NCBI GenBank assembly: GCA_021787535.1
Contig: JAJYLR010000002.1
Coordinates: 24,556-88,555, forward strand
Source of the DNA: a bacterium
GTDB taxonomy: Bacteria > Patescibacteriota > CPR2 > UBA1875 > JAJYID01
Direction of reading: 5' to 3'
DNA length: 64,000 nucleotides
The notes beneath the pieces are model-generated. The model had not been told where the DNA came from, did not search any database, and worked only from the letters and a program-made list of their open reading frames with translations. The position numbers were made by a program, and so were the translations under genes. Below, piece by piece: positions 6,506 through 38,062 of this stretch (the first letter of the stretch is position 1; each line of letters opens with the position of its first letter).

Positions 6506-6536
6506 AAAGGCCCCATTCCGGGGCCTTTTGTTTTTT
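6506..6536 (+). terminator. rho-independent terminator
   Basis: GGCCCC-attcc-GGGGCC hairpin followed by TTTTGTTTTTT. Confidence 0.75.
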
Positions 6537-6589
6537 CATTTTAGTTTTTATACTTTACAAAAGAAACAGAAAATCATTATAATACGCTT

Positions 6590-7150: not shown

Positions 7151-7157
7151 CTATCCC

Positions 7158-10017: not shown

Positions 10018-10048
10018 ATCTCTCCGGTTAACTATTTAAAATGAAGAC

Positions 10049-13240: not shown

Positions 13241-13243
13241 GCA

Positions 13244-15124
13244 ATGGCTGCGGAGCTGCAAGAACCAGAGGAACTGGAAGAAGAGCCCCAAGAAGATGAA
13301 GGGCTTGGCGACACCGTCCGTGATGCGGATCAGGACTTTAAAAATCTAAACAAGTTCAGAAATAAGGGCAAGGGAGGAGAAGGCGCATCAGATGCCGCAA
13401 AGGGTGGAGCAAAAGCTGCCGGAAAAGAAGGAGCTGAACTGGCCGCTGAAGAAGAAGCAGCCCACATAGCCGAAAAAAGGGTGGCAGCTGAGGCAGCGGC
13501 AAGGTTAGGGGCGGAGGCCATCGGCGCGATTTCAACCGGGGTTGGAGTGGTGCTTGCTATTCCCGATCTTGTCCGGCTGGCAAAAAGCAAGTGGGGGAAG
13601 ATAACAATTGGTTCCTGCTGTGTTTGTGCGTGTTTGCCGTTTGCAGGAATATTGTTTGGCGGCATGATCTTGATTGCCGCCATTGGTGGTGGCCAAAGCG
13701 GAGACTCTAACAATCAATGCCCTTATATTCGCAGTGATGGAGAGGTGATCGAAGATTGGAGTTATGAGTTGGTAGATGGTAACAAAGAGAATTATAAAAC
13801 TGCCCTCCAAGATGCTGAAGCAATTACACATGTACCCGCTGCTATTCTGGCAGCTATTGATTATGAAAAGTACGCTAACGGTTATCAAGACGATAGAGAT
13901 AATCCACACAGAAGTCATGAACAAGCATTAATTGAGATAGGCAAAAAGGTACAGGAAACAAATGAATTGAGAGATAAATCGACAGGCAAGCTAGTTCTTG
14001 ATGAGAATGGAAAGCCCATAGATACCGTCTGGACTGATTCGGTTAGCAAAGATAACCCCAATATTGCCACTGGAATAGCTATCTTATCAAACTATCGATG
14101 CCCTGAGGTGGCAGAATCCTTGGCAGATCAAGCTAACCCACCCATAGCCGGGAATCAAAAAAATGAGTTCATAAATGAGTTTTGTTATTCATCCAAAGGG
14201 GGACCGGGTAACAGCACCTATACAGCAATGGACGATGATTGGATCATGCGAGATTTTGTTGACGATTCAGTAGCTGGTGAAATTCAAAAATTAAATCCTG
14301 TGCAGTCGGTTCCTTACTTAGGCACCTTTGTGGGAGGCGTTTTAAAGGGAGTGTCCACAGCTAAACAATTACTTGACTCATTGGCAAACGTGCCGGGAGC
14401 AGTTTGGTCTGCAAAATGCCACATAGGAGTAGGAAATTGCGAAACACCAGAGATTGGCGCGGCTACATGGCTAAAGGTATATCTTGATGGCGATGAACTG
14501 ATAAAGAGCCACACAGTAACAGAAAATGGGAAAAAGAAGACCATTCCAGGATGTCCTATCAAGAAATGGACGGGTGGCAGTAGCAACGGTTCTCCAAGTT
14601 CAGGTAGTCCAGGCCAATGCGTTAACGGCATTGCCCAAGTTCCCGAGTTTTTCCAATTTTCTCCACCCTGGGCATCTATACCTATAGATGAGTCGGGAGA
14701 CAACGTCCGAGCAGGCGGTTGCGGACTCACTTCACTGACAATGGTGTTAAACTGGTATGGCAAAGGTGTTACACCGGCCGATACTATTACTTGGCTGGAT
14801 GCCAATCCCCCTGTTTGCTATTCAGGTGGCTGGACCGGCTGCATGTATCCAAAAGTAGCACAACACTGGGGTATGAATGCCGGATTTAATACCATAGGAT
14901 GGGCAGAGGCAGAACAAAAACTTAGGAACTGCCAACCTGTTATTGTGGCAAATAATAGCGGCAGTTGGGCTTATACATGGCATTTAGTGGTTCTAACAGG
15001 AATTGACAGCAACAACAATGTCCATGTTAACGATCCGTTTCCTCGGGATATGAAAACTGGCCAATACACCGTGCCTCTTGATACAATAAAATCAACCATA
15101 GGAAATATCATCGATGTATACTGA
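13244..15124 (+). CDS. membrane-anchored cell-wall hydrolase with C39-like papain-fold cysteine peptidase domain (VirB1/PrgK functional analogue)
   Basis: Acidic N-terminus, TM helices, C-terminal GGCGLTSLTMVLNWYG (Cys nucleophile) and WHLVVLTGID..VHVNDP (His/Asp). Confidence 0.55.
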   Translation: MAAELQEPEELEEEPQEDEGLGDTVRDADQDFKNLNKFRNKGKGGEGASDAAKGGAKAAGKEGAELAAEEEAAHIAEKRVAAEAAARLGAEAIGAISTGVGVVLAIPDLVRLAKSKWGKITIGSCCVCACLPFAGILFGGMILIAAIGGGQSGDSNNQCPYIRSDGEVIEDWSYELVDGNKENYKTALQDAEAITHVPAAILAAIDYEKYANGYQDDRDNPHRSHEQALIEIGKKVQETNELRDKSTGKLVLDENGKPIDTVWTDSVSKDNPNIATGIAILSNYRCPEVAESLADQANPPIAGNQKNEFINEFCYSSKGGPGNSTYTAMDDDWIMRDFVDDSVAGEIQKLNPVQSVPYLGTFVGGVLKGVSTAKQLLDSLANVPGAVWSAKCHIGVGNCETPEIGAATWLKVYLDGDELIKSHTVTENGKKKTIPGCPIKKWTGGSSNGSPSSGSPGQCVNGIAQVPEFFQFSPPWASIPIDESGDNVRAGGCGLTSLTMVLNWYGKGVTPADTITWLDANPPVCYSGGWTGCMYPKVAQHWGMNAGFNTIGWAEAEQKLRNCQPVIVANNSGSWAYTWHLVVLTGIDSNNNVHVNDPFPRDMKTGQYTVPLDTIKSTIGNIIDVY

Positions 15125-15703: not shown

Positions 15704-16975
15704 TTGTATTCACCAATTGAAAATAAAAAAGAAAAAGTGGAATTCCTAGTAGCATTTTTTATAACTTTTCTTTTTATTTTTATTCCATTGACAATAACAT
15801 TTGCTGGTAATACAAAAAGGTTTTTCTCTACCCCACCCGGTGCTTTAAATCTGGATCAATGTAATGGACCTTGGGCTGTAACGTTCAGCGATAAAACAGA
15901 TGATCCCAATGTTAAGAGTGACGCTGCAATAGAAAAAAACAAGAGAAAACTCGCTGATGCTATAAACGCCGAGATTGCCAAATTCCCTAAGTCTAAGTTT
16001 TTAAAGACAAACGGCGGACTAGATGATCCGGGTAAAGCTTTTGTTGATGCCAGTATCGAAAATAATATCAACCCTATACTTTTAGTGGCTATGGCTTACA
16101 CCAATTCGGATATGGCGAGTACGACGAATGCGGCCCTGAAATGCGGCAACCCATGGGGCCAGCAGCCCATAACCGGCAAACCAACCTGTCAGACTAATGA
16201 TGGTGGCCAAACCCTTTCATGGTATGAATATAACAAAGATCATCAGTATAATGAGGGCATGATTGGCGATGAGGCAAAGAGAGTTTTTCAAACATATCTG
16301 AACCAGACCGACTGGAACCCGCCACTTATCACTCTGGATGATTTCGTACAAAGATATGACGAGAAAAATCCTTGGAGAGAAATGGGCGTGCCAGATCAAA
16401 GTAAATCAATCGCAGACAACTATAAAACTGTTTACAATGACATATTAACATCAAAGAATGGGAAAGATACCCTTGTGTGCTCTCAGAGTGGAAATGGTGG
16501 GGGGGATTTAGCAAATGCCGACTCCCTGAGCGTCAAAGGCATAGAATGTGTTCTAGATGCAACAGGCCATGGCTACAATCTAAAGCCTTATGCTCAGGAT
16601 TTGTATAAAGCTGCTCATGATTTTCATGTTAACCCCCTTTATTCCCTTGCGCAATTTGATAAGGATAGTTCCCTAGGTACAGCAGGAGCCGGCCTCGACA
16701 ATAAAAATCCAGGAAATATAGGTTGCGACCAAGGATACACCACAGGAGCTGGTGTGCAATACAGCTGTGCTGACTTTGCCGTTTTTAATACCTTTGGTGA
16801 TGGAATGAGGGCTCACAACTGGTTAATCAGAACTGAATATCTAGATCAGGGACTTACCACAATTGAAGCCATTATCAACAAGTATGCCCCTCCTAGTGCA
16901 AATGACACCAACCAATATATTCAAGATGTGAAAGATTTTATGAGTAAATATGGGCCAATGTGTTCCGGCCAATAA
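15704..16975 (+). CDS. membrane-anchored glucosaminidase/muramidase-like peptidoglycan hydrolase (two repeats)
   Basis: N-terminal TM. Two segments with an L-L-h-A-x-A..NS..S pattern (NPILLVAMAYTNSDMAS; NPLYSLAQFDKDSSLG) reminiscent of the FlgJ-type glucosaminidase domain. Confidence 0.4.
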   Translation: MYSPIENKKEKVEFLVAFFITFLFIFIPLTITFAGNTKRFFSTPPGALNLDQCNGPWAVTFSDKTDDPNVKSDAAIEKNKRKLADAINAEIAKFPKSKFLKTNGGLDDPGKAFVDASIENNINPILLVAMAYTNSDMASTTNAALKCGNPWGQQPITGKPTCQTNDGGQTLSWYEYNKDHQYNEGMIGDEAKRVFQTYLNQTDWNPPLITLDDFVQRYDEKNPWREMGVPDQSKSIADNYKTVYNDILTSKNGKDTLVCSQSGNGGGDLANADSLSVKGIECVLDATGHGYNLKPYAQDLYKAAHDFHVNPLYSLAQFDKDSSLGTAGAGLDNKNPGNIGCDQGYTTGAGVQYSCADFAVFNTFGDGMRAHNWLIRTEYLDQGLTTIEAIINKYAPPSANDTNQYIQDVKDFMSKYGPMCSGQ

Positions 16976-23812: not shown

Positions 23813-24274
23813 ATGGCAAATATTAGCGTCAGCACAATTAAAAAGGTCAAAGAGCAAGCAGACCGAATGCTCTCCCTGCTTGGGGTTGACGCAAATACAA
23901 ACGTTTCAGCCCAGGAAGGAAGAGTAAAGATTGAAATCGTATCTGCGGATAAAGCCCTTTTAATCGGTTATCGCGGAGAAAACCTGTTTGCCCTTAGATA
24001 TATGATGGCGCTTGTGGCAAGAGAACTGCTTCCGGAAGGCACTTCCCTGGCTGTAGATGTTGGCGGCTACTTAAAAGATAAGGAAAAAAGAATTGAGAAT
24101 ATGGTAGATGTGGCTGCGAAAAAAGCCAAAGAAACAGGGATGGAAGAAATGCTGCCGCCGATGAATGCTTATGAAAGGATGCTAGCCCACCAAAGAGCAT
24201 CAAAAATAACCGGAGTTACCAGTTATTCTGAAGGTGCCGGAAGCGAAAGAAGAATTTTTATAACTAAAGGATGA
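23813..24274 (+). CDS. jag: Jag/KhpB-like RNA-binding protein (KH + R3H)
   Basis: IEIVSADKALLIGYRGENL (KH-like) and C-terminal R3H-like region. Position after yidC. Confidence 0.7.
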   Translation: MANISVSTIKKVKEQADRMLSLLGVDANTNVSAQEGRVKIEIVSADKALLIGYRGENLFALRYMMALVARELLPEGTSLAVDVGGYLKDKEKRIENMVDVAAKKAKETGMEEMLPPMNAYERMLAHQRASKITGVTSYSEGAGSERRIFITKG

Positions 24275-25164
24275 ATCTCCAAATGCAGGGTGTAAAAGTT
24301 AAAAAAGCAATTTTGCCGGTAGCCGGGTTTGGCACCAGATTTTTGCCGGCCACAAAAGCGATGCCGAAGGAAATGCTACCCATAGTTGACAAGCCGGTAA
24401 TCCAGTATTTGGTCGAAGAGGCGGTAAACTCAGGGATAGAGGAAATCATCTTTGTTACAGGGCGAGGGAAACGCGCCATTGAGGATCATTTTGATATTTC
24501 ATACGAGCTGGAAGATACACTGGTCGAAAAGAATAAAAAAGATCTACTTGCCTCGGTCCAGGATATACCGACGCTTGCCAAGTTTTCTTATGTGCGCCAG
24601 TCGCTGCCGCTTGGCGACGGCCATGCCATCTTGCAGGCCGCCCATCTTTTAAATGGCGAGCCGGCCCTTGTAATCTTCGGCGATTGTCTTTATGATAGCG
24701 AAGTCCCGGCCTCCAAACAGCTGATTGACGCATTTGAAAAATACGGCGATTCAATCATAGGGCTCAGTGAAGTGCCAAGAGAGGAAGTAAAAAAATTTGG
24801 CGTCATTGACGGCAAAGAGATCGAAGCCGGTATTTATGACGTTAAGCAGGTAGTTGAAAAACCGGAACCCAAAGATGCACCGACCAATCTGGTGGCTGTC
24901 GGGAAATATATAATTACCAAAGACGTTCTTGATACTTTAGCGGGGATGGAATCCGGCAAATCCGGCGAGATCCGCCTGGCCGATGCTTTTGATATAATGC
25001 TGGCATCCGGTAAATCCATTTATGGCAAGGTGCTGGACGGCGAGTGGCTAGATACAGGAACCAAGCTCAACTTTTTGAAAGCCACTGTCAAAATGGCCTT
25101 AAAGCATGACAAATTGCAAAGTGACTTTAAAAAGTTTTTAAAAGAGGTAACAAAGGAGCAATAA
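24271..25164 (+). CDS. galU: UTP--glucose-1-phosphate uridylyltransferase
   Basis: AILPVAGFGTRFLPATKAMPKEMLPIVDKP nucleotidyltransferase signature. Confidence 0.85.
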   Translation: MNLQMQGVKVKKAILPVAGFGTRFLPATKAMPKEMLPIVDKPVIQYLVEEAVNSGIEEIIFVTGRGKRAIEDHFDISYELEDTLVEKNKKDLLASVQDIPTLAKFSYVRQSLPLGDGHAILQAAHLLNGEPALVIFGDCLYDSEVPASKQLIDAFEKYGDSIIGLSEVPREEVKKFGVIDGKEIEAGIYDVKQVVEKPEPKDAPTNLVAVGKYIITKDVLDTLAGMESGKSGEIRLADAFDIMLASGKSIYGKVLDGEWLDTGTKLNFLKATVKMALKHDKLQSDFKKFLKEVTKEQ

Positions 25165-25919
25165 TGAAAGGAATAATCCTTGCTGGAGGGAAGGCAACTC
25201 GGCTAAGGCCGCTAACCAAAGTCATCACCAAACAGCTCTTGCCAGTTTATAACAAGCCGATGATCTACTACCCCATCGAAACTCTAGTCGGCGCCGGTAT
25301 TAAAGATATTTTAATAATTGTCGCGCCCGAACATGCCGGCAACTTCATGAATATGCTTGGTTCCGGCAGAGACTTTGATGCCAAGTTCAGCTACGAAATC
25401 CAAGATGAACCGCGAGGATTAGCCGATGCTTTCATTGTAGGAGAAAACTTTATTGGCAGTGATGATGTTACTCTTGTCTTGGGTGATAATATTTTTGATT
25501 ATGATTTCACTGATCACATCAAGTCATTTAAAAAAGGAGCCACTATTTACGCCAAAGAGGTGCATGACCCGGAAAGATATGGTGTGGTTGAGTTTGACGA
25601 ACAGATGAATGTCATTTCTATAGAGGAAAAACCGGCAAAGCCAAAGTCCAACTTTGCCGTTGTTGGTTTATATACTTATGATAATCGTGTGATTGAGTAT
25701 GCAAAGGGATTAAACCCTTCTGATAGGGGTGAGATTGAAATCACTGATCTTAACAATGTTTATCTGAAAAAAGGCGAAATGAAAGTAAACATAATTGACG
25801 GTATCTATGAGGACGCAGGAACCTTTGACAGCTTGCTGCGGGCCGGTAATATCATGGCCGAAAAAGCCACCTCTTCTTGTCATTCCCGCGAAGGCGGGAA
25901 ACTGGAGAGTAAAAAATGA
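25164..25919 (+). CDS. rmlA: glucose-1-phosphate thymidylyltransferase-like sugar nucleotidyltransferase
   Basis: MKGIILAGGKATRLRPLT..LLPVYNKPMIYYP signature. 251 aa. Confidence 0.75.
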   Translation: MKGIILAGGKATRLRPLTKVITKQLLPVYNKPMIYYPIETLVGAGIKDILIIVAPEHAGNFMNMLGSGRDFDAKFSYEIQDEPRGLADAFIVGENFIGSDDVTLVLGDNIFDYDFTDHIKSFKKGATIYAKEVHDPERYGVVEFDEQMNVISIEEKPAKPKSNFAVVGLYTYDNRVIEYAKGLNPSDRGEIEITDLNNVYLKKGEMKVNIIDGIYEDAGTFDSLLRAGNIMAEKATSSCHSREGGKLESKK

Positions 25920-26923
25920 AAATACTTGTAACAGGTGGTGCCGGCTTCATTGGCTCTAATTTTATCTATTGGGTTTTAAAAAATAGAGATTGGGAAATCA
26001 TAAATCTAGACAAACTGACATACGCCGGTAATCTAGAAAATCTAAAGGGTATAGAAAACGATCCACGATACAACTTTGTGCAGGGTGATGTCTGTGATTC
26101 GCACACTGTTAATGAACTCATGGCAAAGGTGGACTGTGTAGTACATTTTGCCGCCGAATCTCACGTTGACCGTTCGGTTCTTGAGCCGGCCGTTTTTGTA
26201 GAGACTAATGTGGTTGGCACACAAGTGCTTCTGCAGGCAGCCCTCGAAAATAAAATTAAAAAATTTCATCATGTCTCAACCGATGAAGTCTTTGGCGCGC
26301 TCGAGCTTGATGGCAGCAAAAAGTTTAATGAGGAAACACCCTACAACCCGCACAGCCCTTATTCCGCTTCCAAGGCAGCGTCTGACCACCTAGTCAGAGC
26401 TTACGGCGACACTTTTGGCCTCGAGTATACCATTACTAACTGCTCTAATAACTATGGCCCGTACCAGTTTCCGGAAAAAATCATTCCTCTTTTTGTAACC
26501 AATGCTCAGGAAGATAAATCTTTGCCGATTTACGGCGATGGTAAGGCGGTTCGTGACTATCTATACGTTGATGATCATTGCGAGGCGATTGCTTTGGTTT
26601 TGGAGAATGGCAAGGCAGGGGAAACTTATTGTGTCGGCGGTGACAGTGAGAAAAACGGCATTGAGATGGCCGAAACCATTCTAAAAGCGCTTGGTAAGCC
26701 GAAAAGTCTCATGACATTTGTCAAAGACCGGCCGGGGCATGATCGCAGGTACGCCATAGACCACTCTAAAATCACCAAAGAGCTTGGCTGGAAACCGCGA
26801 GTCACATTTGAGGAAGGAATTGCCAAAACTATTCAGTGGAATCTGGATAATAAAGGATGGGTCGAAAATATCTTAAGCGGCGAATATCAGAAATATTATG
26901 AAAAGCAGTACGGAGCGAGGTAA
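25916..26923 (+). CDS. rmlB: dTDP-glucose 4,6-dehydratase
   Basis: SDR fold [11 protein letters not shown], catalytic YxxxK (YSASKAASD), 335 aa. Confidence 0.85.
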
Positions 26924-27096
26924 TGAACAGCAAGCTTTTAGTTACAGGTGGAGCAGGTTATATCGGCAGCCATGTTATAAGGCAGCTTTTGGATGCCGGT
27001 TATAATGTGAAGGTTTTTGACTCTTTAGAAAACGGACCACACAGAATAAAAACTTTAAAAAGTCTTAAAATGATGTGCCCAACGGGTAGTAATTAA
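26923..27096 (+). pseudogene. truncated UDP-glucose 4-epimerase (GalE) N-terminal remnant
   Basis: First about 37 codons match the GalE N-terminus ([22 protein letters not shown]). The reading frame then diverges and stops after 57 codons, overlapping the convergent - strand gene. Confidence 0.55.
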
Positions 27097-29137
27097 TTTC
27101 AGTATTGTTCACAAGAATAATATTATTCCAATCATAATTTAAAAAACAGAAAACTTCTGGTGAGCTAATCCATCGCTTTTGTCCGTTCTCAAGAACGTAA
27201 ACTGGGGGATCACTCCCTTTCAAAAGGGTTCCATCGGGATAATGCATGTCTGAAGCAGAAGAATAAGAGGATATCTCAGATGGAGAAATTACCACTATAT
27301 TCCTCCAAAAAAACTGAGAATTGAAAATATTCGGATCCCCAATCCATCTTTTTTGACCATTGCTAATTAAATAGACATTTGGATTATCTACTGCTTTCAC
27401 TAAGGTACTATTGGGGTGTAGCGCGGTGTTTGTAACATTTTCACCAGATGGATAGTATGCAACCTCTGCGTCCGAAGTATATACGAGGTTATCCCAGTTG
27501 TATCCAAGACTATTAAAGACATCAGGACTGGTAATCCATCGCTTTTGTCCATTCTCAAGAACGTAAACCTGTTGAGTGCTACCCTTGATTAATGTTCCAT
27601 CTGGGAAATGTAGAGAAGGTCCATCACTATATCCTTTGATTCTGCCCTCTGATACTGTTAAAACTCTTTCTGACTTAAGATTTAACCTGAAAAATTGAGG
27701 ATCTCCAACCCATCTTTTTTGACCATTGCTAATTAAATAGACATTTGGATTATCTGGAGACTTTACAAGAGTTCCATTTGGATTGAATTTGTTATTATAG
27801 TTTAACGAACTTCTTATATCCATTCTTCCAAAACCATATTCAAATGAGAAGTTACCATCAGGGATTTGTAATTTTTCTCCGGAAGATATAATCATGTCCA
27901 TGATTTCATTGTTTGTTGAACTTGGAAACTCAGAAAAAAGCAAACTTGCTTCGCCGGTTACCTCTGGTGCTGCTAACGATGTTCCATCGGCGGTAGCATA
28001 ACTATTTGTAGTATAGGTATTACCTTGCCAAGTAGTTGAAGAAGACAAGATATTAACTCCAGGAGCCATAACATCAAGTTCTGGACCATAGTTTGAACCC
28101 CAACCATAGTTAGCTGTAGTAACCCTCCTATCTTGATTATCTGTAGCACCAACTGCAATTACATCTGAGTAGGCGGCTGGATAATCCACACCCTGAATAT
28201 CATCATTTCCTGCAGCAGCCACTAAAACAACCCCCTTCCCATAAGCATAATTGATTGCATTTTCCAAAATAGTATCGGGTCCTTGTGATTGTAATTCTCC
28301 AAAACTCATATTAATAACCTTTGCACCATTGTCAGCCGCATACTCAAGAGCTAAGGCAACCTTATCGCTGGTACCACTACCATTATTGTCCAGACATCTT
28401 ACCGGCATAATTTTGGCATTCCAATCAATACCAGTAATACCTTTACTGTTGTTGGCATTCGCAGCAATCACTCCAGCTACTAGGGTACCGTGCATATAAG
28501 CAGATCCACCCCCACTTGCCGGAGAAGGATCGTTGTTACCGTCAACAAAATTCCAACCATATTTATCGTCAACATAACCATTATTATCATCATCAACACC
28601 TGATACGCCATTCACTTCTTTGGTATTTTGCCAGATTCGTCCAGTAAATTCTTCATGTATTGGATGCGCACTATCCATACCAACGTTTATCCCCGTATCA
28701 AGTACTGCGACAGTAACAGAGTTACTACCTGTTGCTCCGGTAGCCCATGCTTGGTCTGCCGTTATCTTTGGAATGTTCCACTGGTTTGTATAAAGAGGAT
28801 CATTAATAACTGCTGTAGCATTATAGTGCTTTATAGGCTGCTTATTGTTAATAAGTAAGGGTTCAGTAATAAGGCCCAGAATGCTGACATTTTTTCTGCG
28901 AATCTTATATAGACCAGGTGAAGATTTTAGCTTGAGAGCTTGAACATCATAACCTTCATTTTTTAGAGTTTGTATGTTCTGAGGGGCTATTTTGCCAAAG
29001 AATGTGGTTTGGTAACTACCTGCAAAAGTTTTATCATACAAGAACAAACAAAAAAAGAAAATGCAGAGCAAAATAAGGGTTTTTTTATAATTAAATAATT
29101 TTAAAATCTTTGTTGACATAAACATTATTAATGACAA
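27065..29137 (-). CDS. secreted subtilisin-like (S8) serine peptidase with four C-terminal about 65-aa repeats
   Basis: Catalytic Asp (VAVLDTGI), His ([11 protein letters not shown]), Ser ([11 protein letters not shown]). Signal peptide. C-terminal repeats with core [18 protein letters not shown]. Confidence 0.8.
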
Positions 29138-29173
29138 TAAAAATTTATCATAAAACTATTCTTTTATTCAAGC

Positions 29174-29201
29174 TTGACAATGTGCTCAATCATGCTAGAA
29201 T
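29174..29201 (+). promoter_or_regulatory. sigma70-type promoter in divergent intergenic region
   Basis: TTGACA, 16 nt, TAGAAT about 75 nt upstream of ATG 29278. Confidence 0.5.
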
Positions 29202-29277
29202 GCAAAAGCAAACAAACATAAAATTTATGATAAGTATCATTAGTTTATTTAAATTATTTTCCAAGGGTAAGGGGGTA

Positions 29278-32025
29278 ATGGCGCTTCTACTAACAACTCT
29301 TGGTTTTTTGTTTATTATAGGTCACCCCCAAAAAACATTCGCAGCATTAGATAATAGTAATGTTATTTCAGATAATAGGTTTGTTGCTTCTGGCACAATG
29401 TCGGAGCAGGATATACAGAATTTTTTAAGTTCACATGGAAGCTACTTGGCAACTTATACTGTACCAGCAGCTAGATATGAAACATGGCAAGGTACCAGTT
29501 ATTATGAGAATCCTTGGATAGGACCCATTGGTAATGAAGTTAACGCTACTGGATGGAGTGCTGCTCATGTTATATATCAGGTTTCACAGTGGTATACCAT
29601 AAATCCGCAAGTCTTAATTACTACCCTAGAAAAAGAATCAGGTCTCATCACAACATCTAACCCTAGTTATTATGGGTTAGTACAATGGTCAATGGGATAT
29701 GCGTATACCGAAGGAGGTATTCTGAATGCCTGCGGTACAAGTACAAATTATAACCCGACGGGTTCGTGTGCCGGTTTCGCCATGCAGGTAGATTGGGGTG
29801 GAGGTGCTCTAAAACAATGGATGGTTTGGGCTAATGAACATAACTCAAGTGCAGGTATATATTACACAGGGAATACTGTGTCTATTGACGGGCAATCAAT
29901 ATACCTAGGCAATGGAGCAACTGCTGCTTTATACCGATATACTCCTCATATTCAGACAAGTTTTTACAATATTTTTACCTCCTGGTTTAGTATAGAGAGG
30001 GCAATTGCAGACAATGGAGATCAACGCCAATGGATTGTTGATTATACAACAGGCACGCGACAATATATCCCAAGTGCTAGTGTAATTAATGCTTGGAATT
30101 TAGATACTAATGCACCTTTACAAACAATGAGCGCTACAACATTGGGGTCTTTTCGTGATATGACAGATCCTTTGGGAAACATAATCCGTCCCAGTGGAAC
30201 CCTTACCATCTATTATGTTAATGGTGGTAGAAAGTATCCAATTGCCTCAATTGGGGTTTTTGCAGAGTGGGGTCTTTCCACCCAAGATATCATTGATACC
30301 ACGGCCAATACTGGAAGTTTATCTATAACCACTAATACTGCTACATATTTGGATAGTAATCAACAACAATGGTTAATAGATTTTACGGTAAATACTCGAT
30401 ATTATATTTCTTCAGGCGATATATCTAGCGCTTGGGGTATTAGTGTTGATCCAAATAACCAAAACAATAATGCTCCTACTGTTAGCTTGCCTAATGCTAT
30501 TTTCTCTGGGATTGTACAAGGAGCAAATCTAGGAAGAGTTGTAAGACCTAGTGGCGATGTGGCAATTTATTTTGTTGATAATGGAACCCGCTACCATATT
30601 ATGTCTCCCGAGATGATGTCTGCTTGGGGAATCTCTACAGATTCGGTTCTCAATCTCTCAAAGCAATTAATAGATGTTTCGTTACATCAAGCAGATTTAG
30701 GATATATAGTAAAGGATCCAAATAACACAAATATCTACATGGTTGATGGTTCGAATGGATTAGGCCAAACAATTCTTAGGCAATATGGCAGTCCTGATGT
30801 TCTGGTTGCATGGGAAGGGAATGTGCAAAATATAGCCATTTCAAATACTTTCTTTACAAGCAACATGACTGTTAGTGCTGATCAGATTACCACAACAAAA
30901 ATTGCCTATAATGGTAATGAATATCAAGTTGTTTCGGGACAAAAACTGCCTATGTCAGACACTGTTGCCCACCTTTATCCAGGAGTGGCACAAAATATCT
31001 CTGATGCTACCTTTAATAGACTAGTTCCTAGTGCTCCTGTTGTTCAATTTATAAGAAGCTATGATAGCACCGATGTATATATGATAGATAACCTTAAGAA
31101 ACATAAGGTTTTAAGTCCAGAGATACTTCGAGCATGGGGTATAGGACCTGATCCCATTATTAATATTGTCAATAGTGGCTACCTTAACTTAATCCCTTCC
31201 GATACAGATTTAAATACTTATGAAGCTGATGTAAGTGGCCAGCTTTATCTGATGGATGGTCGCAAGATTACTATTCCAGCAAACTTAGATACTGCATATA
31301 GAACAGTTAATGTTTATAGTCCTAGTACATACCTAATAACCCTTTTAGTTTCCGGTGAAAATGCCTCAAATTTTTTAAAGGGTTTTCAGACTGTGCCTAT
31401 TTATCTCATGGATAACGCTAAACTTCGTCATATCCGTTTCCCAGCTGATCTTGAACTTTTGAATTCAGGAGAAAACATTACCTCTGTTTCCCAATATGTT
31501 CTAAGCCAGTTTTCGGAAGATGCTTTTGTAGGGCATTATGTTACAGATGGGAGCACTAAATACCTAATAGATCATGGCACTAAGTACACTGTAAGCGACT
31601 CATTAGCTTCAGAATGGGGTCTTGGTACACCAGACACTTTAACGAGTGCTACTATCTCTAGATTTACAGGGTCTTCTGCCCTAACTAATCTTTTTAGAGA
31701 TTCGGGGGGCAATATTTATTTAATCAATCAAGGGATAAAAAGGCATATTCTCGGTCCCTCTGTTTTCTCAGCATGGGCCTTTCAAGAAAACCAAGTATTA
31801 AATACCTCAGATGCCTTGATTAATACTGTGCCCACGGGTCAATACCTTGATATATTAGCAAAGACTTCATCATCTCCGGCAATATATAAAATGGAACTAG
31901 GGATAAAAAGGCATATTCTTTCTCCCGAGGTCTTTACGTCCTTAGGATATCAACCGTCTATGGTATCCATAGTATCCTCAGCATTATTGGATAGCTATAA
32001 TGAAGGAAGTCCGATTTCGAATTAA
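29278..32025 (+). CDS. large secreted protein with at least 10 copies of the same about 65-aa repeat as the neighbouring peptidase
   Basis: Signal peptide MALLLTTLGFLFIIGHPQKTFA. Repeated cores IYYVNGGRKYPIAS, IYFVDNGTRYHIMSPEMMSAWGIS, VYMIDNLKKHKVLSPEILRAWGIG, IYKMELGIKRHILSPEVFTSLGY. The ORF-track start 29131 would overlap the divergent gene. Confidence 0.7.
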   Translation: MALLLTTLGFLFIIGHPQKTFAALDNSNVISDNRFVASGTMSEQDIQNFLSSHGSYLATYTVPAARYETWQGTSYYENPWIGPIGNEVNATGWSAAHVIYQVSQWYTINPQVLITTLEKESGLITTSNPSYYGLVQWSMGYAYTEGGILNACGTSTNYNPTGSCAGFAMQVDWGGGALKQWMVWANEHNSSAGIYYTGNTVSIDGQSIYLGNGATAALYRYTPHIQTSFYNIFTSWFSIERAIADNGDQRQWIVDYTTGTRQYIPSASVINAWNLDTNAPLQTMSATTLGSFRDMTDPLGNIIRPSGTLTIYYVNGGRKYPIASIGVFAEWGLSTQDIIDTTANTGSLSITTNTATYLDSNQQQWLIDFTVNTRYYISSGDISSAWGISVDPNNQNNNAPTVSLPNAIFSGIVQGANLGRVVRPSGDVAIYFVDNGTRYHIMSPEMMSAWGISTDSVLNLSKQLIDVSLHQADLGYIVKDPNNTNIYMVDGSNGLGQTILRQYGSPDVLVAWEGNVQNIAISNTFFTSNMTVSADQITTTKIAYNGNEYQVVSGQKLPMSDTVAHLYPGVAQNISDATFNRLVPSAPVVQFIRSYDSTDVYMIDNLKKHKVLSPEILRAWGIGPDPIINIVNSGYLNLIPSDTDLNTYEADVSGQLYLMDGRKITIPANLDTAYRTVNVYSPSTYLITLLVSGENASNFLKGFQTVPIYLMDNAKLRHIRFPADLELLNSGENITSVSQYVLSQFSEDAFVGHYVTDGSTKYLIDHGTKYTVSDSLASEWGLGTPDTLTSATISRFTGSSALTNLFRDSGGNIYLINQGIKRHILGPSVFSAWAFQENQVLNTSDALINTVPTGQYLDILAKTSSSPAIYKMELGIKRHILSPEVFTSLGYQPSMVSIVSSALLDSYNEGSPISN

Positions 32026-32107
32026 CATCAGAATACATATGTCTTGTCAGATTAAGATATAATTGACACTGTTGGCAATTTTTGCTATATTTTAACTTGT
32101 TTTCAAG

Positions 32108-32902
32108 ATGGAAAAAATAAAACAATACAATTACTTTGGATTAACCAGAGAACTGGCTCTTACTGATTTTAAACTTAAATACCAGGGCTCTTTTTTTGGA
32201 TATTTATGGTCCCTAGCTAAGCCTTTAATGCTTTTTGGAGTTCTTTACCTCGTGTTTACTAGATTCTTTAGATTAGGTGGTTCGATACCCCACTATCCCG
32301 TTTACTTATTATTGGGCATAGTTCTTTTTAACTATTTCGTAGAGTCAACATCAGCTTCAATGGGGTCTATAGTAGGTAAAGGTGATCTTATTAGAAAGGT
32401 TTACTTTCCAAGAATTATACTGACGGTTTCTACATCGATCACAGCTCTGATAACTCTATTACTTAATATGATTGTAGTATTTATTTTTATGATATTATCA
32501 AAAACGGTTCCCACTATAGATACACCCTTCTTAGTTCTACTTTTATTGGAACTCTTCGTTTTGGTATCAGGTGTTTCCTTATTTCTTGCCTCACTATTTG
32601 TGCGCTTTAGAGACATTGCTCATATTTGGGAGGTTTGTAATCAAGTACTTTTCTATGCGGTTCCTATAATCTACCCCCTTAGTTTTGTTCCTGGTAGAAT
32701 TGGAAAAATACTATTATTAAATCCCCTTGCTCAAATTATTCAAGATTCGAGATTCGTATTAATTACCCATCAAACAGCTACGGCTGGGTCTATGTTACAT
32801 TTTCCATATGTTTTTATTCCATATACTCTACCCTTCATAGTTTTTGCATTTGGGTATTGGTTTTTTCAAAAATCAGCAGCTAAGTTTGCGGAAGAGGTTT
32901 AA
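32108..32902 (+). CDS. wzm: ABC-2 type polysaccharide/teichoic acid export permease (Wzm/TagG-like)
   Basis: 6 TM ABC-2 architecture directly upstream of the cognate ATPase. Confidence 0.8.
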   Translation: MEKIKQYNYFGLTRELALTDFKLKYQGSFFGYLWSLAKPLMLFGVLYLVFTRFFRLGGSIPHYPVYLLLGIVLFNYFVESTSASMGSIVGKGDLIRKVYFPRIILTVSTSITALITLLLNMIVVFIFMILSKTVPTIDTPFLVLLLLELFVLVSGVSLFLASLFVRFRDIAHIWEVCNQVLFYAVPIIYPLSFVPGRIGKILLLNPLAQIIQDSRFVLITHQTATAGSMLHFPYVFIPYTLPFIVFAFGYWFFQKSAAKFAEEV

Positions 32903-34173
32903 TGAGTGATGTAATACAAAAACTAACCAAAAAGAAAAAAACTTCTAAAAAAGAAGTTGCAATTGAGGTAAAGAATATTTCAAAGACCTTTAAAGTACCC
33001 CATGAAAAACATATGACATTAAAAGCAACAGCATTAAATGTATTGCGAAAAAAACGTTATGAAGAATTTCAAGCTTTAAAGAATATAAATTTTGAGGTTA
33101 AAAAGGGTGAGTTTTTTGGAATTATTGGTAGAAATGGTTGCGGGAAAAGCACTTTGCTAAAGATTATTGCGAGTATTTACATTCCCACCGAAGGACAAAT
33201 AAAAATTAAAGGTAAAATCTCTCCCTTTTTAGAGCTTGGGGTAGGATTTAACCCCGAATTAACCGCTAGAGAAAATGTTTTTTTAGGAGGTTCTATTCTT
33301 GGCTTGTCAAGGAAAGAAATTTTTAAAAAATTTGATGAGATTATTCAATTTGCCGAATTAGAAGAATTTGTTGACATGAAATTTAAAAACTTCTCATCTG
33401 GAATGCAGGTTAGACTTGCATTCTCACTTTCCATTTACGCTCATGCCGAGATTCTTTTGATGGATGAAGTCTTGGCTGTTGGAGATGCAAATTTTCAGGC
33501 CAAGTGCCTAGAAGAATTTAAGAAATATAGGCAACGTGGTAAAACAGTTGTTCTAGTAACGCATGATATTGGAACTGTTAGACAACATTGTGACAGAGCT
33601 GCACTTTTAAGGAATGGTAAGATTGTTAAGATAGGCAAGGCAGAAGACGTGACGACAAAATATATAGCCCAAAATATGTCTGACCAAGAAGCAGCAGAAA
33701 TAAAAACAGATCACGCTAGTAAGTTGAAGCAATTTGGCACAAAGGATATAGTAATTACCTCAACCAAGGTTTTTGATTCAAACAATAAGGAAAGACAGTC
33801 TTTTTTAGCTGGAGATCCTATGACAGTTAAGATTGAATACAAGGCCAAAAAGACAGTAGAAGGACCACATTTTGGTATAGCAATGATTGATACGGGGGGA
33901 AATCTGCTTTGTTCTAGCAATCATTTAAGACATATGCAGATCATTAATAAAATTGAGAAAGGCCAAGTTGGTTATGTGGAATGCAAAATAAAAAGTCTAC
34001 CATTTTTAACAGGCAGTTATTTTATAACAGTCTCAATTTATTCTGATAAGTTTAAAAGTGCTCCTCGTGCCATTCATCACATTGAAAAAGCTAAGAAGAT
34101 TAATATAACAAACAAAAATCAGATTTCTGATGAGGGCATGATATTTTTAAATTGTGATTGGAAAATTTCATGA
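32902..34173 (+). CDS. wzt: polysaccharide ABC exporter ATP-binding protein (Wzt/TagH-like) with about 170-aa C-terminal extension
   Basis: Walker A GRNGCGKST, signature SSGMQVRLAF, Walker B LLMDEVLAVGD. Extra C-terminal beta-rich domain as in Wzt carbohydrate-binding domains. Confidence 0.8.
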   Translation: MSDVIQKLTKKKKTSKKEVAIEVKNISKTFKVPHEKHMTLKATALNVLRKKRYEEFQALKNINFEVKKGEFFGIIGRNGCGKSTLLKIIASIYIPTEGQIKIKGKISPFLELGVGFNPELTARENVFLGGSILGLSRKEIFKKFDEIIQFAELEEFVDMKFKNFSSGMQVRLAFSLSIYAHAEILLMDEVLAVGDANFQAKCLEEFKKYRQRGKTVVLVTHDIGTVRQHCDRAALLRNGKIVKIGKAEDVTTKYIAQNMSDQEAAEIKTDHASKLKQFGTKDIVITSTKVFDSNNKERQSFLAGDPMTVKIEYKAKKTVEGPHFGIAMIDTGGNLLCSSNHLRHMQIINKIEKGQVGYVECKIKSLPFLTGSYFITVSIYSDKFKSAPRAIHHIEKAKKINITNKNQISDEGMIFLNCDWKIS

Positions 34174-35087
34174 ATCTAAACAAAATTAAGCTTAGAAAAC
34201 TTTTATTTACTCAGGACAAAAAGTATACAATCAAGTGGATTAACTATGAGTTTTGCTCATCCTGTAATCTTAGGTGCAAATGGTGCTCACTGGATCATAA
34301 AAAGAAACCTATGTTTATAACAAATGAGATTTTGACATCTAGTCTGGATAATATAATACAAGATGAAGGGTTTGATATTGAGCGGATAGATTTGCATAAT
34401 GCCGGTGAGACATTGCTTCATCCGAAACTATCAGAATTATTAGGTATTCTAGCTAGCAAAAAAAAAGAGTTTAAAAACAAACCAACTATTCATCTCCTGA
34501 CGAATGGAACCTTGTTAAATGAAGAAAAGACGAAAATTATTCTTGCAAGTAATGCCCTTGACGAATTACGAGTTAGTATTGATGGTGGGACTAGACAATA
34601 TTATAACGAGATAAGGATTGGCGCTGATTGGGATAAAGTCAAAGAAAGAATTTCAAACTTTATTACATTCAATAAAAAGAAAATTAAAATTGGTGTTATT
34701 TGCATGGTGCCTCAAGAAAAACCACTGACAACTGACTGGATGGAAAGGGATTTTAAAGAACTTTTTAGTAAAATGGATAGTGTAGACCTTAGACATCCTC
34801 ATAACTGGGATGGGGCTAAAGATTTAAACTTATTTAAAAGTTCTGATTGGAAGGAGGAAAACAAGTTATGTAAATTCCTGTTAAAAAATCTGGTTATTCT
34901 TCCAAATGGAGATGTTACCGTTTGTTGTGCTGACTTGAATTCCAGAGGTGTTGTAGGGAACCTAAGAAACAAAACACTGACTGAGATCTTTTTTTCAGAA
35001 TCGAGATTAAAAATGATTGATTTATATAATAAAGGAAGGAAGTCAGAAATAGAACTTTGCAAAAACTGCACAGGATATTATGAATAG
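34158..35087 (+). CDS. radical SAM enzyme with C-terminal SPASM/twitch Cys cluster
   Basis: CNLRCKWC (CxxxCxxC). C-terminal VTVCCADL...CKNCTGYY auxiliary-cluster cysteines. Confidence 0.7.
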   Translation: MENFMNLNKIKLRKLLFTQDKKYTIKWINYEFCSSCNLRCKWCSLDHKKKPMFITNEILTSSLDNIIQDEGFDIERIDLHNAGETLLHPKLSELLGILASKKKEFKNKPTIHLLTNGTLLNEEKTKIILASNALDELRVSIDGGTRQYYNEIRIGADWDKVKERISNFITFNKKKIKIGVICMVPQEKPLTTDWMERDFKELFSKMDSVDLRHPHNWDGAKDLNLFKSSDWKEENKLCKFLLKNLVILPNGDVTVCCADLNSRGVVGNLRNKTLTEIFFSESRLKMIDLYNKGRKSEIELCKNCTGYYE

Positions 35088-35128
35088 TTTAATAAGTTGT
35101 TGTTGTTCACTAAAAGAGGTTTTCGCAT

Positions 35129-38062
35129 ATGAATGATGAAAAAAAATTATATTTGGAAGAACTACCATTTGATACTTATGGGAGACATGCTCTTATTCGA
35201 GATATTATTAATCTTGATCGTTCTGGCGATAAGATTAAAATACTTGATGTTGGGGGACGATATAATCTTATGACGAAATTTTTCCCAAATGACGAGGTTT
35301 TTTACCTTGATTTGGAGATTAACCCAGGGGATAAAAATGCAGTACAAGGTGATGGTTGCGATATTCCGCTCAAAGACAATAGTTTTGACTATGTTGTATC
35401 CTCTGATGTTTTCGAGCATATAAAACAAAAGGATAGGCAAAGATTTCTAAGGGAGTGCATGAGGGTAGCGAAAAATGGGCTTGTTTTAGCAGCTCCATTT
35501 TATTCAAAAGAAGTTGAGGAGGCGGAGAAAATTGCTAACGAAAGTTACAAAATAATTTTTGGGGGGCAAGACCATAGATGGCTTATTGAACATATAAAAA
35601 ACGGATTGCCAAGGGAAGATGAAGTTAAGAACTTTGTAAAAAGTAATAATTTGTACTCACAGGTATCTAACGTAAATAACCTTGGGTTGTGGGCGCAGTT
35701 AATCACAATCGGCTTTATAGCGATAGACAAAGGATTGATTAGTGAAGAATATAGTCGATTTAATAAATTCTACAATCAAGAGATTTACCCTATAGACAGA
35801 ACAAGGAACTCATATCGTAAAATCTTCCTTATTAAAAGAGAAAATAACTTTAATATGCCAAAAATTACAGAGGAGATTCCATTGGATTTGTACTTAAGAG
35901 CTGTTTCAATGGGCAACAATTTAACATTTGGTGTGATTAGTAAACTGGAGAGTAATGAAAGGGAACTGATTTTGAAAAATCAAGAGATCAGGAAAGAAAT
36001 GAAACAACAACTGGATCAAAAGCACAAAGAGCTAGAAGAAAAAGTGAAAGAGACAGAAGAGATACGGACTTCAACAAGTTGGAAGGTTACAAAGCCAATG
36101 AGAAAAATCAAAGATATAAGTAATAAAGTCTTATTATTAGGTAAAAAATCCATTACTGTGATCAAAGAGGAAGGTGTCTTTGAATTTTTTAAGCGAGTGG
36201 GTAAATACGTAACTCATAGAACAATAGCTAGATTGCATCAACAAAAAACCTTCTCCCATAGTTACCTAGATATCTCCCAATGGTATCAGGGAAATAAGAA
36301 GAAAGTGACTGTAGTCATACCAAGTTATAACGACTACAAATTGCTTAAAAAATGTATTGATAGTATTAACAGGACAGCAGATGAGAGATATGTGGATGTG
36401 ATAATAGTTGATGATGCTAGTACTAAGAATGAACACCAAAGCTTTTTGAAGTCATTAAACCAGAAGAATATTAAAGTAATCTATAACAAGAAAAATAGTG
36501 GTTTCGCCAAAACAGTTAATGTTGGTATGAAGGCAGCAAAAACCGGTGATATTGTTGTTTTAAATAGTGATATAGAAGCAAAGAAATACTGGCTTGAGTC
36601 TCTTCAGTATGCTGCATATTCCTCAAAAGACATAGGAATCGTCGGTGGTAAGCTTCTATATCCTAATAAAACCATTCAATATGCTGGATCATATCGTAAT
36701 CTAGATGCTCCTGAATGGTTTGATCACTATTACCGTTTTAAACCATCATCTTTTCCACCCGCAAATATACCTAACTTTGTACTAGGAATTACAGGGGCTT
36801 GTATGTATATCAAAAGCGAGGTAATTAAAAACATAGGTTATATGGATGAAAAATTTCCAATGGCCTTTGAGGATATGGATTATAGTATACGGGCTTGGAA
36901 TGTGGGATATAAAAGTCTGTATTTCCCTATGGCTACTCTCATTCATCATGAGTCGATTACACGTGGGACAAAACAAGGAGCTCGAGAGAAGGAATCTCTC
37001 AGATATTTCTGGCAAAAATGGGGTGATTGGTTTGACAAAAGAAATGTAAGAAATAGTGAGGGAGTAACAAAGATTATATATGTTATTCAATCTACGGGTG
37101 TTGGTGGAGGAGCGAGGATTATATTTGAACATGTTAATAAACTTAAAGAGCTTGGTTATGATGTAGAACTCTATAATCTCGAAGGAAATCCAAAATGGTT
37201 TAAGCTAGACGTTCCAGTGAAGACGTTTAAGAACTATTCTCAGCTTATAAAAGCATTGGAAAATGAAGAGGCAATTAAAGTTGCCACTTGGTGGGAAACA
37301 GCAGAACCAGTTTGGCTTTCTTCTGTAAGAAAGGGAGTCCCAGTTTATTTCGTCCAAGACATAGAATCGTCTTATTACAAAGATGATGAATATATGCAGA
37401 ACTTTGTGTTATCAAAGTACAGAAAGGAATTCAGATATTTTACTACCTCTGGAGTTAATGAAAAGGCACTTAAGGATATGGGTTTAATACCAGCAGTCAT
37501 TCCTTGTGGCATGGATACCACTATATATAAACCTCTTGAGGTGAAAAGAGAAAAAGATGTGATGCTTTCTGTAGGTCGAAGTCACTACTTGAAGAATCTC
37601 ACTATGACTATGGATGCTTGGAAAGAAATCAAAGATAAACAACCTACATTTTGGATGTTTGGTATAGAACCACAAGTTGCTGATGGAATACAAAATACTA
37701 AATACTATTACAAACCAACAGATGAAGGTGTAAACGAACTTTATAATAAGGCAACTATATTTGTTCAAACTTCAAGACATGAAGGTTTTTGTCTCCCTGT
37801 TCTAGAAGCTATGGCTGCTGGGGCTCCAGTGATATGCACAGATGCACATGGAAATGCAGATTTCTGTGTCGATGGGGAAAATTGTCTGATGATTGAGCAT
37901 GATGATGTAAATAATCTTAAAAGACAGATTAAAAAACTTTTCTCAGATAAGAAACTACAAGAAAAATTGAGGAAATCAGGATATAAAACAGCGCAGCAAT
38001 ATTCCTGGCCAGTTATAATGAAAAAATTAACAAATTTTTTTGATAACATTGCAAATAATTAG
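35129..38062 (+). CDS. three-domain glycan-synthesis protein: class I SAM methyltransferase - coiled coil - GT2 glycosyltransferase - GT1/GT4-like glycosyltransferase
   Basis: MTase motif I ILDVGGRYN and post-I acidic DL. Coiled-coil at about aa 260-310. GT2 VTVVIPSYND..IIVDDAS..DMDY. C-terminal RHEGFCLPVLEAMAAGAPVI (E-x7-E). Confidence 0.7.
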   Translation: MNDEKKLYLEELPFDTYGRHALIRDIINLDRSGDKIKILDVGGRYNLMTKFFPNDEVFYLDLEINPGDKNAVQGDGCDIPLKDNSFDYVVSSDVFEHIKQKDRQRFLRECMRVAKNGLVLAAPFYSKEVEEAEKIANESYKIIFGGQDHRWLIEHIKNGLPREDEVKNFVKSNNLYSQVSNVNNLGLWAQLITIGFIAIDKGLISEEYSRFNKFYNQEIYPIDRTRNSYRKIFLIKRENNFNMPKITEEIPLDLYLRAVSMGNNLTFGVISKLESNERELILKNQEIRKEMKQQLDQKHKELEEKVKETEEIRTSTSWKVTKPMRKIKDISNKVLLLGKKSITVIKEEGVFEFFKRVGKYVTHRTIARLHQQKTFSHSYLDISQWYQGNKKKVTVVIPSYNDYKLLKKCIDSINRTADERYVDVIIVDDASTKNEHQSFLKSLNQKNIKVIYNKKNSGFAKTVNVGMKAAKTGDIVVLNSDIEAKKYWLESLQYAAYSSKDIGIVGGKLLYPNKTIQYAGSYRNLDAPEWFDHYYRFKPSSFPPANIPNFVLGITGACMYIKSEVIKNIGYMDEKFPMAFEDMDYSIRAWNVGYKSLYFPMATLIHHESITRGTKQGAREKESLRYFWQKWGDWFDKRNVRNSEGVTKIIYVIQSTGVGGGARIIFEHVNKLKELGYDVELYNLEGNPKWFKLDVPVKTFKNYSQLIKALENEEAIKVATWWETAEPVWLSSVRKGVPVYFVQDIESSYYKDDEYMQNFVLSKYRKEFRYFTTSGVNEKALKDMGLIPAVIPCGMDTTIYKPLEVKREKDVMLSVGRSHYLKNLTMTMDAWKEIKDKQPTFWMFGIEPQVADGIQNTKYYYKPTDEGVNELYNKATIFVQTSRHEGFCLPVLEAMAAGAPVICTDAHGNADFCVDGENCLMIEHDDVNNLKRQIKKLFSDKKLQEKLRKSGYKTAQQYSWPVIMKKLTNFFDNIANN

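Follow-up and report, generated by a model that had tools for sequence, protein, structure and literature searches.

A galE remnant beside a resident pair of repeat-bearing secreted proteins in a putative cell-wall glycopolymer locus of an uncultured WS5-like bacterium

The stretch analysed here, 64 kb of metagenome origin from contig JAJYLR010000002.1 (assembly GCA_021787535.1) and hereafter called the window, carries a galE gene reduced to a short remnant next to two genes for secreted proteins that share a repeat. The locus lies ~5 kb from dnaA-dnaN-recF, beside the replication origin (dnaA-dnaN), and is reached through the genes rpmH-rnpA-yidD-yidC-jag-galU-rmlA-rmlB. The last of these, rmlB, is the final intact gene of a conserved left arm that runs from dnaA through rnpA, yidD, yidC, jag, galU and rmlA. 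It is followed by the galE remnant, by a subtilase of the S8 peptidase family on the opposite strand and by a large repeat-bearing secreted protein on the + strand, which we call BIG (Table 1). Beyond the genes in Table 1, the glycopolymer pathway continues to ~45751 with Pfam matches to GT2, GT4-WecG/TagA, DUF4330, Wzy_C, manC and a GT4-family initiating transferase. The TagA/WecG-like, WecA/MraY-family and Wzy_C-like genes of the locus suggest that its product is a teichoic-acid-like or rhamnose-type wall polymer. Six related loci were compared with the window (L084, L086, L087, L088, L089 and L090), five of them found through the genes surrounding BIG homologues and the sixth, L090, from a DNA pattern scan for the galE N-terminus. 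Housekeeping proteins of these loci and of the window share 70-90% identity; L088 belongs to WS5, and the lineage of the window is WS5-like and uncultured (a relative of 'candidate division WS5').

Table 1. Positions of the features at the locus, in window coordinates, with the basis for each call
Feature	Position	Strand	Basis
rmlB (dTDP-glucose 4,6-dehydratase)	25916-26923	+	Pfam GDP_Man_Dehyd and Epimerase; 85% identical to L087 orthologue
galE remnant, 57-codon open reading frame	26923-27096	+	Pfam and NCBIfam matches; identity to L087 GalE
Junction, ~24-bp A-rich spacer	27041-27064	.	DNA alignments with L087 and L084; terminator scan
Secreted subtilase (S8), 684 aa	27065-29119	-	Peptidase_S8 E 3e-54; start ATG 29119 from gene callers
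Four tandem ~60-aa repeats of S8	27068-27781	-	Profile matches; AlphaFold2 model; Foldseek; DNA repeats D1, D2
Divergent intergenic region, 107 bp	29120-29226	.	Promoter scan; homologue starts
BIG, secreted, 932 aa	29227-32025	+	Orthologues 32-67% identity at same locus in relatives
Putative lysozyme-like (GH73-like) domain of BIG	29317-30000	+	Invariant Glu in TLEKESGL
BIG repeat array	30016-32022	+	Profile matches; alignment A3
Rest of low-GC3 block (GC3, GC content at third codon positions): wzm, wzt (with Wzt_C), radical-SAM/SPASM, methyltransferase-GT2-GT4 fusion	32108-38062	+	Pfam; GC3

The initial annotation had recognised, from the letters alone, a GalE N-terminus of about 37 codons entered through a TAATG overlap with the end of rmlB, and this holds with 38 codons. 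The open reading frame (ORF) has its stop codon at 27094-27096, but only codons 1-38 (26923-27036) derive from GalE; DNA homology runs to ~27040, and 19 unrelated residues complete the ORF. Pfam Epimerase covers residues 6-42, and the galE model of NCBIfam, TIGR01179, is the best of many short-chain dehydrogenase/reductase (SDR) models (residues 4-44, E 8e-12). The N-terminal Rossmann GxxGxxG motif for NAD binding is retained, but the ORF is not a full-length GalE (~330 aa, with a catalytic Ser, YxxxK and a C-terminal domain) and scores 44.6 against a TIGR01179 cut-off of 262. Residues 1-38 are 79% identical to the syntenic 327-aa GalE of L087 (GCA_021790235.1), whose gene begins on the last base of rmlB and thus has the same overlapped junction as the window. 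When the two loci are aligned as DNA, homology is lost after GAAAACGG(A)CCACA (~27040), where the window has one extra A, ~24 bp before the stop codon of the S8 gene. A tblastn search with the L087 GalE in all frames of the window returned no trace of residues 39-327 and found only the paralogue RmlB, so a single-base correction cannot restore galE. Judged from these alignments, the truncation appears to be a deletion and not a frameshift. In relatives, namely L087, L088 and L090, galE is full-length, and in the first two it stands directly after the rml genes. A degenerate DNA pattern for the galE N-terminus found 17 loci in metagenomes, among which L090, with its intact galE, is the one true relative; the other loci are unrelated GalE genes with 42-47% identity. 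The final 10 codons of the remnant lie antisense over the S8 3' end, an overlap of 32 bp. A terminator scan of 27034-27096 found no terminator-like hairpin between the convergent rmlB-galE' and S8, and it is therefore possible that transcripts of rmlB-galE' read through antisense to the S8 3' end.

The two secreted proteins have counterparts at this position in the relatives. A BIG homologue lies downstream of the nucleotide-sugar genes in all six loci, and a repeat-bearing protease stands beside it in every locus whose contig extends far enough (L084, L086, L087 and L089). The gene order is galU-rmlA-rmlB-galE-gtrA-FAD (flavin adenine dinucleotide) oxidoreductase-membrane protein-BIG-S8-epimerase(-)-wzm-wzt-glycosyltransferases in L087, rmlD-galE-gtrA-FAD oxidoreductase-membrane protein-BIG in L090 and galU-rmlABCD-galE-gtrA-GT2-DUF2304-DUF7657-BIG in L088. 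The remaining three loci read galU-rmlABCD-BIG-S8-DUF5648 protein (L086), galU-rmlABCD-BIG-M11 protease-wzm-wzt-glycosyltransferases (L089) and galU-giant S8-101-aa ORF(-)-S8(-)-BIG(+)-wzm-wzt-methyltransferase-glycosyltransferase (L084). Wherever the contig reaches, wzm and wzt follow BIG (L084, L087 and L089). The presence of BIG, together with the protease where the contig allows, at the same site in relatives therefore marks the pair as an old resident of that site. The window contains neither galE(39-327) nor gtrA, and the two or three genes that precede BIG in L087, L088 and L090 are likewise missing from all of it. The divergent S8(-)/BIG(+) arrangement is common to the window and L084, and in a further locus, L107, the gene order equals that of the window from BIG to Wzy_C, the L107 contig beginning just upstream of BIG. 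In L084, the place of rmlA-rmlB-galE is taken by a giant S8 of 1,515 aa (2875-7422) with FG-GAP and Big_7 domains, after which comes the 101-aa ORF on the - strand.

The proteases next to BIG also carry the repeats, with four copies in L084 and L087, two plus DUF5648 in L086 and four in L089. The L089 partner (12114-14273) is an M11/reprolysin-type metalloprotease that keeps the same repeats. The pairing is thus with a protease and not with one catalytic class. In L087, the protease (12154-14145) and the hydrolase, as we call the BIG homologue (10001-12148), are 88% identical over their C-terminal 217 aa, and in L089 the anchors of the protease and the hydrolase (10001-12064) are 68% identical over 227 aa. 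Anchors this similar on unrelated catalytic parts point to gene conversion, or to a recent transfer of the domain from one member of the pair to the other. In the window and L084 the S8 and BIG repeat arrays are only 25-30% identical. The earlier suggestion that both proteins bind the same surface ligand is strengthened by these comparisons: the proteases of relatives bear the same repeats, and the anchor identity in L087 and L089 is the strongest indirect evidence that both enzymes may recognise one ligand.

Base composition changes along with this gene order. A block of six genes (27065-38062, ~11 kb) has a GC3 of 0.26-0.31 between flanks of 0.43-0.51. The drop from galU, rmlA and rmlB (0.43-0.50) falls exactly at the galE stub, and on the right the block is bounded by the GT2 gene at 38087. 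Low GC3 also marks these genes in L084, L086 and L087 and is thus a feature of the whole lineage, seen where the locus is variable and surface-exposed. We considered GC content as a sign of recent import and rejected it, given that the same drop affects the same genes of the relatives.

The subtilase called in the initial annotation on the - strand next to the stub is well supported, with PF00082 at 184.6 bits against a cut-off of 21.8 and the motifs VLDTG, HGT and GTSLAAP. In the ORF listing its reading frame extends to a TTG at 29137. The protein comprises a signal peptide, a catalytic domain (27827-28723) and four C-terminal repeats (residues ~457-686), and its nearest solved structures are generic thermitase and subtilisin. 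Identity as a mycosin (TIGR03921) was rejected at 171.8 bits against a cut-off of 278.75 and with structures nearer thermitase/subtilisin; on the same two grounds, we rejected the idea that S8 and its EccB-like repeats make up a type VII system. In the DNA encoding the S8 repeats (27150-27781) there is a 366-bp periodicity, with pairs of 94-95 nt at 74-81% identity, which suggests that the four repeats arose by duplication of a two-repeat unit.

For BIG, the initial annotation had given a secreted + strand protein of 916 aa; strand and secretion stand, and the length becomes 932 aa. Its start is most likely 29227 (M33) and not 29131, because five orthologues align exactly from M33. BIG has no match in Pfam or NCBIfam. 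Its layout is a signal peptide, an N-terminal lysozyme-like domain and a long array of repeats, with 8 strong and 3-5 degenerate copies at residues ~306-960. The N-terminal domain of ~230 aa has a lysozyme-like alpha/beta fold, the fold match being the GH73 domain of LytB. The Glu of its TLEKESGL motif (E169 counted from 29131, E137 from M33) is invariant in 22 homologues and is the putative general acid. A profile of this domain found nothing among PDB sequences apart from B-lectin, which came from the C-termini of distant homologues. Homologues of the domain (P0007-P0022) are fused instead to CWB2, B-lectin, DUF5648, FG-GAP, GEVED or Ig-like domains. It thus resembles an unannotated domain of catalytic type with interchangeable binding modules.

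S8 and BIG share their repeat, as had been noted, and match each other in a cross BLAST at E 1.5e-13; a profile search of the six-frame translation found it in no other ORF of the window. The unit measures ~60 aa, slightly less than the ~65 aa first given, with a core such as G.L.K....[IV]Y.[IV].NG.KR.I.SP.VF...G. An HMM and structure search had been proposed to place this module. A profile search for the repeat found nothing among PDB sequences. An AlphaFold2 model of the S8 repeats (predicted local distance difference test score, pLDDT, 86) contains four similar units, each of 3-4 strands and 1-2 helices, and Foldseek matched it only to EccB1, EccB3 and EccB5 (E 2e-6 to 2e-3, probability 0.94-1.00). 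TM-scores to EccB are low, since the domains are oriented differently with respect to one another. The model has the EccB-type fold, a 4-stranded sheet with 2 helices in ~55 aa. Among 1.84 billion, a profile built from 12 window repeats recovered 5,888 cluster representatives (50% identity) at E <=1e-3 and 2,467 at <=1e-10. A scan for Pfam partners covered the 69 top family members, of which five reach PF05108 (EccB), the best at E 9e-17. In the family member P0128, the window-derived profile (122-169) and PF05108 (112-179, model positions 181-249, E 3e-6) fall on the same residues. Together, model and profile evidence indicate that the window repeat is probably a remote relative of the EccB repeats.

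Taken as a whole, these data are best explained by a resident pair of secreted proteins in a wall-glycopolymer locus, with the galE stub as the scar of a deletion or recombination, and we estimate the probability of this explanation at roughly 70%. The locus would encode a cell-wall glycopolymer pathway dependent on an ATP-binding cassette (ABC) transporter and would consist of three parts: the conserved left arm (galU, rmlA and rmlB, with or without rmlCD and galE-gtrA), the resident secreted pair, and a variable low-GC right arm. The pair would combine a lysozyme-like (GH73-like) hydrolase with ~10 EccB-type repeats and a protease with ~4, S8 here and M11 in one relative, and both proteins are predicted to be exported by Sec, given the signal peptides read in their sequences. 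Most likely, both enzymes are retained at the wall by their repeats, which would bind one component there, either peptidoglycan or the glycopolymer of the locus; since the pair is encoded with nucleotide-sugar genes on one side and wzm/wzt on the other, the locus polymer is a possible ligand. The hydrolase could remodel glycan strands, and the protease may process wall-bound proteins, possibly including its partner. A deletion or recombination would then have fused galE after codon 38 with sequence lying ~25 bp past the stop codon of the inverted S8 gene. Lost in this event would be galE(39-327) and the segment beginning with gtrA, which in relatives precedes the hydrolase gene; the 57-codon ORF would be a non-functional scar of the event and not the target of an insertion. 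We favour the view that the stub marks the border of the variable part, as the scar of loss or replacement with rearrangement, over the view that the pair was gained. Of this picture, the truncation, the synteny, the common repeat, both folds and the domains that accompany the repeat are observed, and binding to the wall, the nature of the ligand, enzymatic activity and the sequence of rearrangements are inferred.

Several observations weigh against this explanation. The repeats of the window reach no Pfam model and do not match PF05108, with noise only at E up to 10. The Foldseek result for the BIG N-terminal domain points to a GH73-like fold at an E above 0.1, which is not significant. By sequence, the domain does not appear to belong to GH73: it has no Pfam match (PF01832, Glucosaminidase) even at E up to 10, and NCBIfam gives noise only. 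An ORF upstream of recF (15704-16975, 423 aa) has a Pfam Glucosaminidase match flagged as faint; as a candidate relative of the domain it was rejected, at an hhalign probability of 3% and with a weak local likeness to a conserved helix. The absence of galE is established for the 64-kb window only. The mosaic signal described below rests on 3-4 taxa and on fast-evolving surface genes. Finally, the stub has not diverged further than intact orthologues have from one another: over its 35 alignable residues, counted by hand from the printed sequences, it is 83% identical to L087 and 80% to L090, and L087 and L090 share 80%. This conservation implies either that the event was recent or that some constraint acts on the stub.

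A sharper version of the scar explanation has the pair arriving together with the glycan genes. Here the whole right arm (S8(-), BIG, wzm, wzt and the glycosyltransferases) would have been imported by homologous recombination from a donor resembling L084 or L107, in the manner of a serotype switch, with a crossover or an illegitimate joint in galE. The two arms indeed have different nearest relatives. The left arm is nearest L087 (yidC 81% vs 70% for L084; rmlB 85%), and the right arm is much nearer L084/L107 than L087 (BIG 67% vs 39%, wzm 83% vs 57%; GT4-WecG 75%) and follows the L084/L107 gene order from S8(-) to Wzy_C, the compositional step lying exactly at the galE breakpoint. The glycan made by L087 is, however, a different one (WbsX-type transferases), and non-orthology may explain why the L087 right arm matches poorly; S8 is equidistant from the two relatives (57% vs 55%); the housekeeping differences, such as that in yidC, are modest; no right-hand crossover was located; and few genomes are available. 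We regard import of the whole arm as conceivable and somewhat doubtful.

The initial annotation had instead proposed an insertion, in which S8 and the repeat protein entered a galU-rmlA-rmlB-galE operon as a foreign two-gene cassette and disrupted a galE that was intact until then. This proposal accounts for the ending of galE homology ~25 bp from the S8 stop codon and for the promoter-like site that the pair possesses, and it draws on the GC3 of the pair (0.28-0.29, against 0.43-0.50 in the left flank). The comparison of GC across 27065-32025 with its flanks turned out otherwise: low GC3 extends past the pair, over six genes in all up to 38062, and relatives show it in the same genes. An insertion is contradicted further by the pair, or the hydrolase gene, standing at the same locus in six relatives, and by the missing 3' part of galE, of which there is nothing in the 82 bp between 32025 and wzm or elsewhere in the window. 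The hallmarks of mobility are also lacking around the pair, where we found no flanking direct or inverted repeats (short chance-level pairs only), no target duplication, no tRNA and no integrase or transposase; the two genes fill 27065-32025. Acquisition as a cassette is thus improbable.

It is more improbable still that the 57-aa ORF is a functional small protein, serving for instance in translational coupling or antisense control of S8. The retained TAATG overlap with rmlB, the conservation of the 38 codons at the level of intact orthologues, and the extension of the ORF antisense into the S8 3' end without an intervening terminator would fit such a role. SDR catalysis needs the Ser and YxxxK motifs, which are gone from the stub, and a Rossmann beta-alpha-beta unit cut to 38 residues is too short for NAD binding or catalysis. 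No diverged genome was found with a comparable short ORF, a metagenome pattern scan included, and only identical copies were recovered. The stub is most simply regarded, under the scar explanation, as an ordinary pseudogene, which matters mainly for annotation and should not be called galE. A chimeric join at the galE/S8 3' junction is the least probable reading of all, for although the sequence is metagenomic and one Logan contig (L002) breaks off within the S8 repeats, the identical 57-aa ORF and junction occur in two contigs assembled separately by different pipelines (ENA ERZ27233565 and Logan SRR13170411) and the junction sequence is non-repetitive, so a mis-join is unlikely.

The wider distribution of the repeat bears on what the pair may do. 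Among the 148 top repeat-carrying representatives, proteins carry a median of 5 copies at a spacing of 61 residues, and the first repeat begins past the first 30% of the protein in 109 of them; named sources of the family are Patescibacteria and Anaerolineae. In the 69 members scanned, the partner domains, besides the five EccB matches, were Peptidase_S8 (seven), Amidase_2 (six), Peptidase_M23 (four), SpoIID (three), CHAP (two), and Glucosaminidase and NlpC/P60 (one each). The repeat is thus typically joined to peptidoglycan-cleaving enzymes, the pattern expected of a wall-targeting module. On this basis we tentatively propose, at odds that we would place below even, that the ~60-aa EccB-type repeat is a widespread and unrecognised wall-polymer anchor, represented by ~5,900 clusters at 50% identity that are mainly Patescibacteria-like or Chloroflexi-like and have no Pfam family of their own. 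In this lineage the anchor would define a conserved unit of hydrolase and protease within the locus, and gene conversion would keep its copies on the two enzymes alike (88% in L087), allowing both to follow the polymer that the locus makes.

A second-hand likeness links the repeat to PlyCB. The EccB1 repeats are reported to form a 4-stranded sheet with 2 helices and to resemble this wall-binding subunit (PMC4769845). PlyCB, from the streptococcal phage endolysin PlyC, binds the polyrhamnose backbone of streptococcal wall polysaccharides (bioRxiv 10.1101/2021.03.19.436156). The repeats of the window are encoded in an rmlA/rmlB wall-polymer locus, and their family is often fused to peptidoglycan hydrolases, which parallels the pairing of PlyCB with a rhamnose-based wall polysaccharide. 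However, the likeness passes from the repeat to EccB and from EccB to PlyCB and is weak, any ligand here is putative, and PlyCB is an octameric ring of single domains, unlike the tandem array seen here. The resemblance to EccB repeats R1-R4 (PF05108; PDB 3x3m, 4kk7, 7nps) is closer, in that both are small folds of ~55-60 aa in tandem, both are extracytoplasmic and some family members reach PF05108 by sequence. In contrast to EccB, the window proteins have neither the transmembrane EccB architecture nor its central core domain, and their repeats form long C-terminal arrays on secreted enzymes and stay below all Pfam thresholds. No type VII secretion genes (EccC, EccD, Esx) were found among the annotated ORFs of the 22-50 kb region, all of which belong to housekeeping or glycan pathways.

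If the anchor proposal is true, the EccB repeats of type VII secretion would be wall-binding modules recruited from this pool. To our knowledge, the role of the EccB repeats in type VII secretion is still unproven, and an anchor that binds wall or glycopolymer would supply a testable ligand hypothesis for EccB. It would also provide a handle on the organisation of envelope enzymes in ultra-small uncultured bacteria, as well as new cell-wall-binding domains for engineered lysins. A repeat that lacks a Pfam family of its own links ~5,900 clusters, among them many peptidoglycan amidases, M23, CHAP and NlpC/P60 peptidases, SpoIID proteins and subtilases of uncultured lineages.

The combination of a hydrolase-protease pair with a large unannotated repeat family is a variant of a known scheme, in which surface enzymes share a wall-binding repeat. 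Pneumococcal LytB has an architecture of choline-binding repeats whose ligand is teichoic acid. As with LytB and the other choline-binding proteins, one type of repeat is found here across several surface enzymes of one cell. The fold differs, choline-binding repeats being beta-hairpin solenoids, as do the order of domains, which is reversed, and the sequence-level membership of GH73, which BIG lacks. In Clostridioides difficile, the CWB2 proteins, including the protease Cwp84 and other Cwp proteins, are encoded beside the PS-II polymer locus. There too a protease and other surface proteins share an anchoring repeat next to the genes for the bound polymer, and one distant homologue of the BIG N-terminal domain (P0016) is itself fused to CWB2. 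The two systems differ in the fold of the anchor, in the class of the protease (cysteine there, serine here) and in the S-layer, for which no gene was seen here. In O-antigen and capsule loci, truncated genes at the borders are recombination scars between conserved flanks and the variable glycan region. The window resembles such borders in having a nucleotide-sugar gene remnant exactly at the step from normal to low GC3 and in the different nearest relatives of its left and right arms. It departs from them in belonging to an uncultured WS5-like lineage and in a junction that abuts a protease rather than a glycosyltransferase.

The remaining observations concern the divergent spacer and the neighbouring sugar and glycan genes. 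The promoter noted at 29174 between S8 and BIG was present as a sigma-70-like TTGACA-16-(TG)TAGAAT (29174-29201) that faces BIG, matches the consensus at 11 of 12 positions and has an extended -10. The number of promoter-like sites in the region equals that expected by shuffling (21 vs 21.0), and the site can therefore be taken only as a consensus match. The dTDP-rhamnose pathway is incomplete inside the window, where rmlA and rmlB (24271-26923) are present and rmlC, rmlD, gtrA and a second galE are absent; L086, L088 and L089 hold rmlABCD together. A scan of GTDB species genomes with RmlB gave matches of at most 65% identity in many phyla, none with the pair, and was of no use for synteny because RmlB is too conserved and too often transferred. 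The right-arm gene order matches that of L084 and L107, and a radical-SAM/SPASM gene (34158-35087) that lies between wzt and the methyltransferase-GT2-GT4 fusion of the window is absent from both of these otherwise collinear loci. In L107, a GDP-mannose-4,6-dehydratase-like gene follows the methyltransferase-glycosyltransferase gene.

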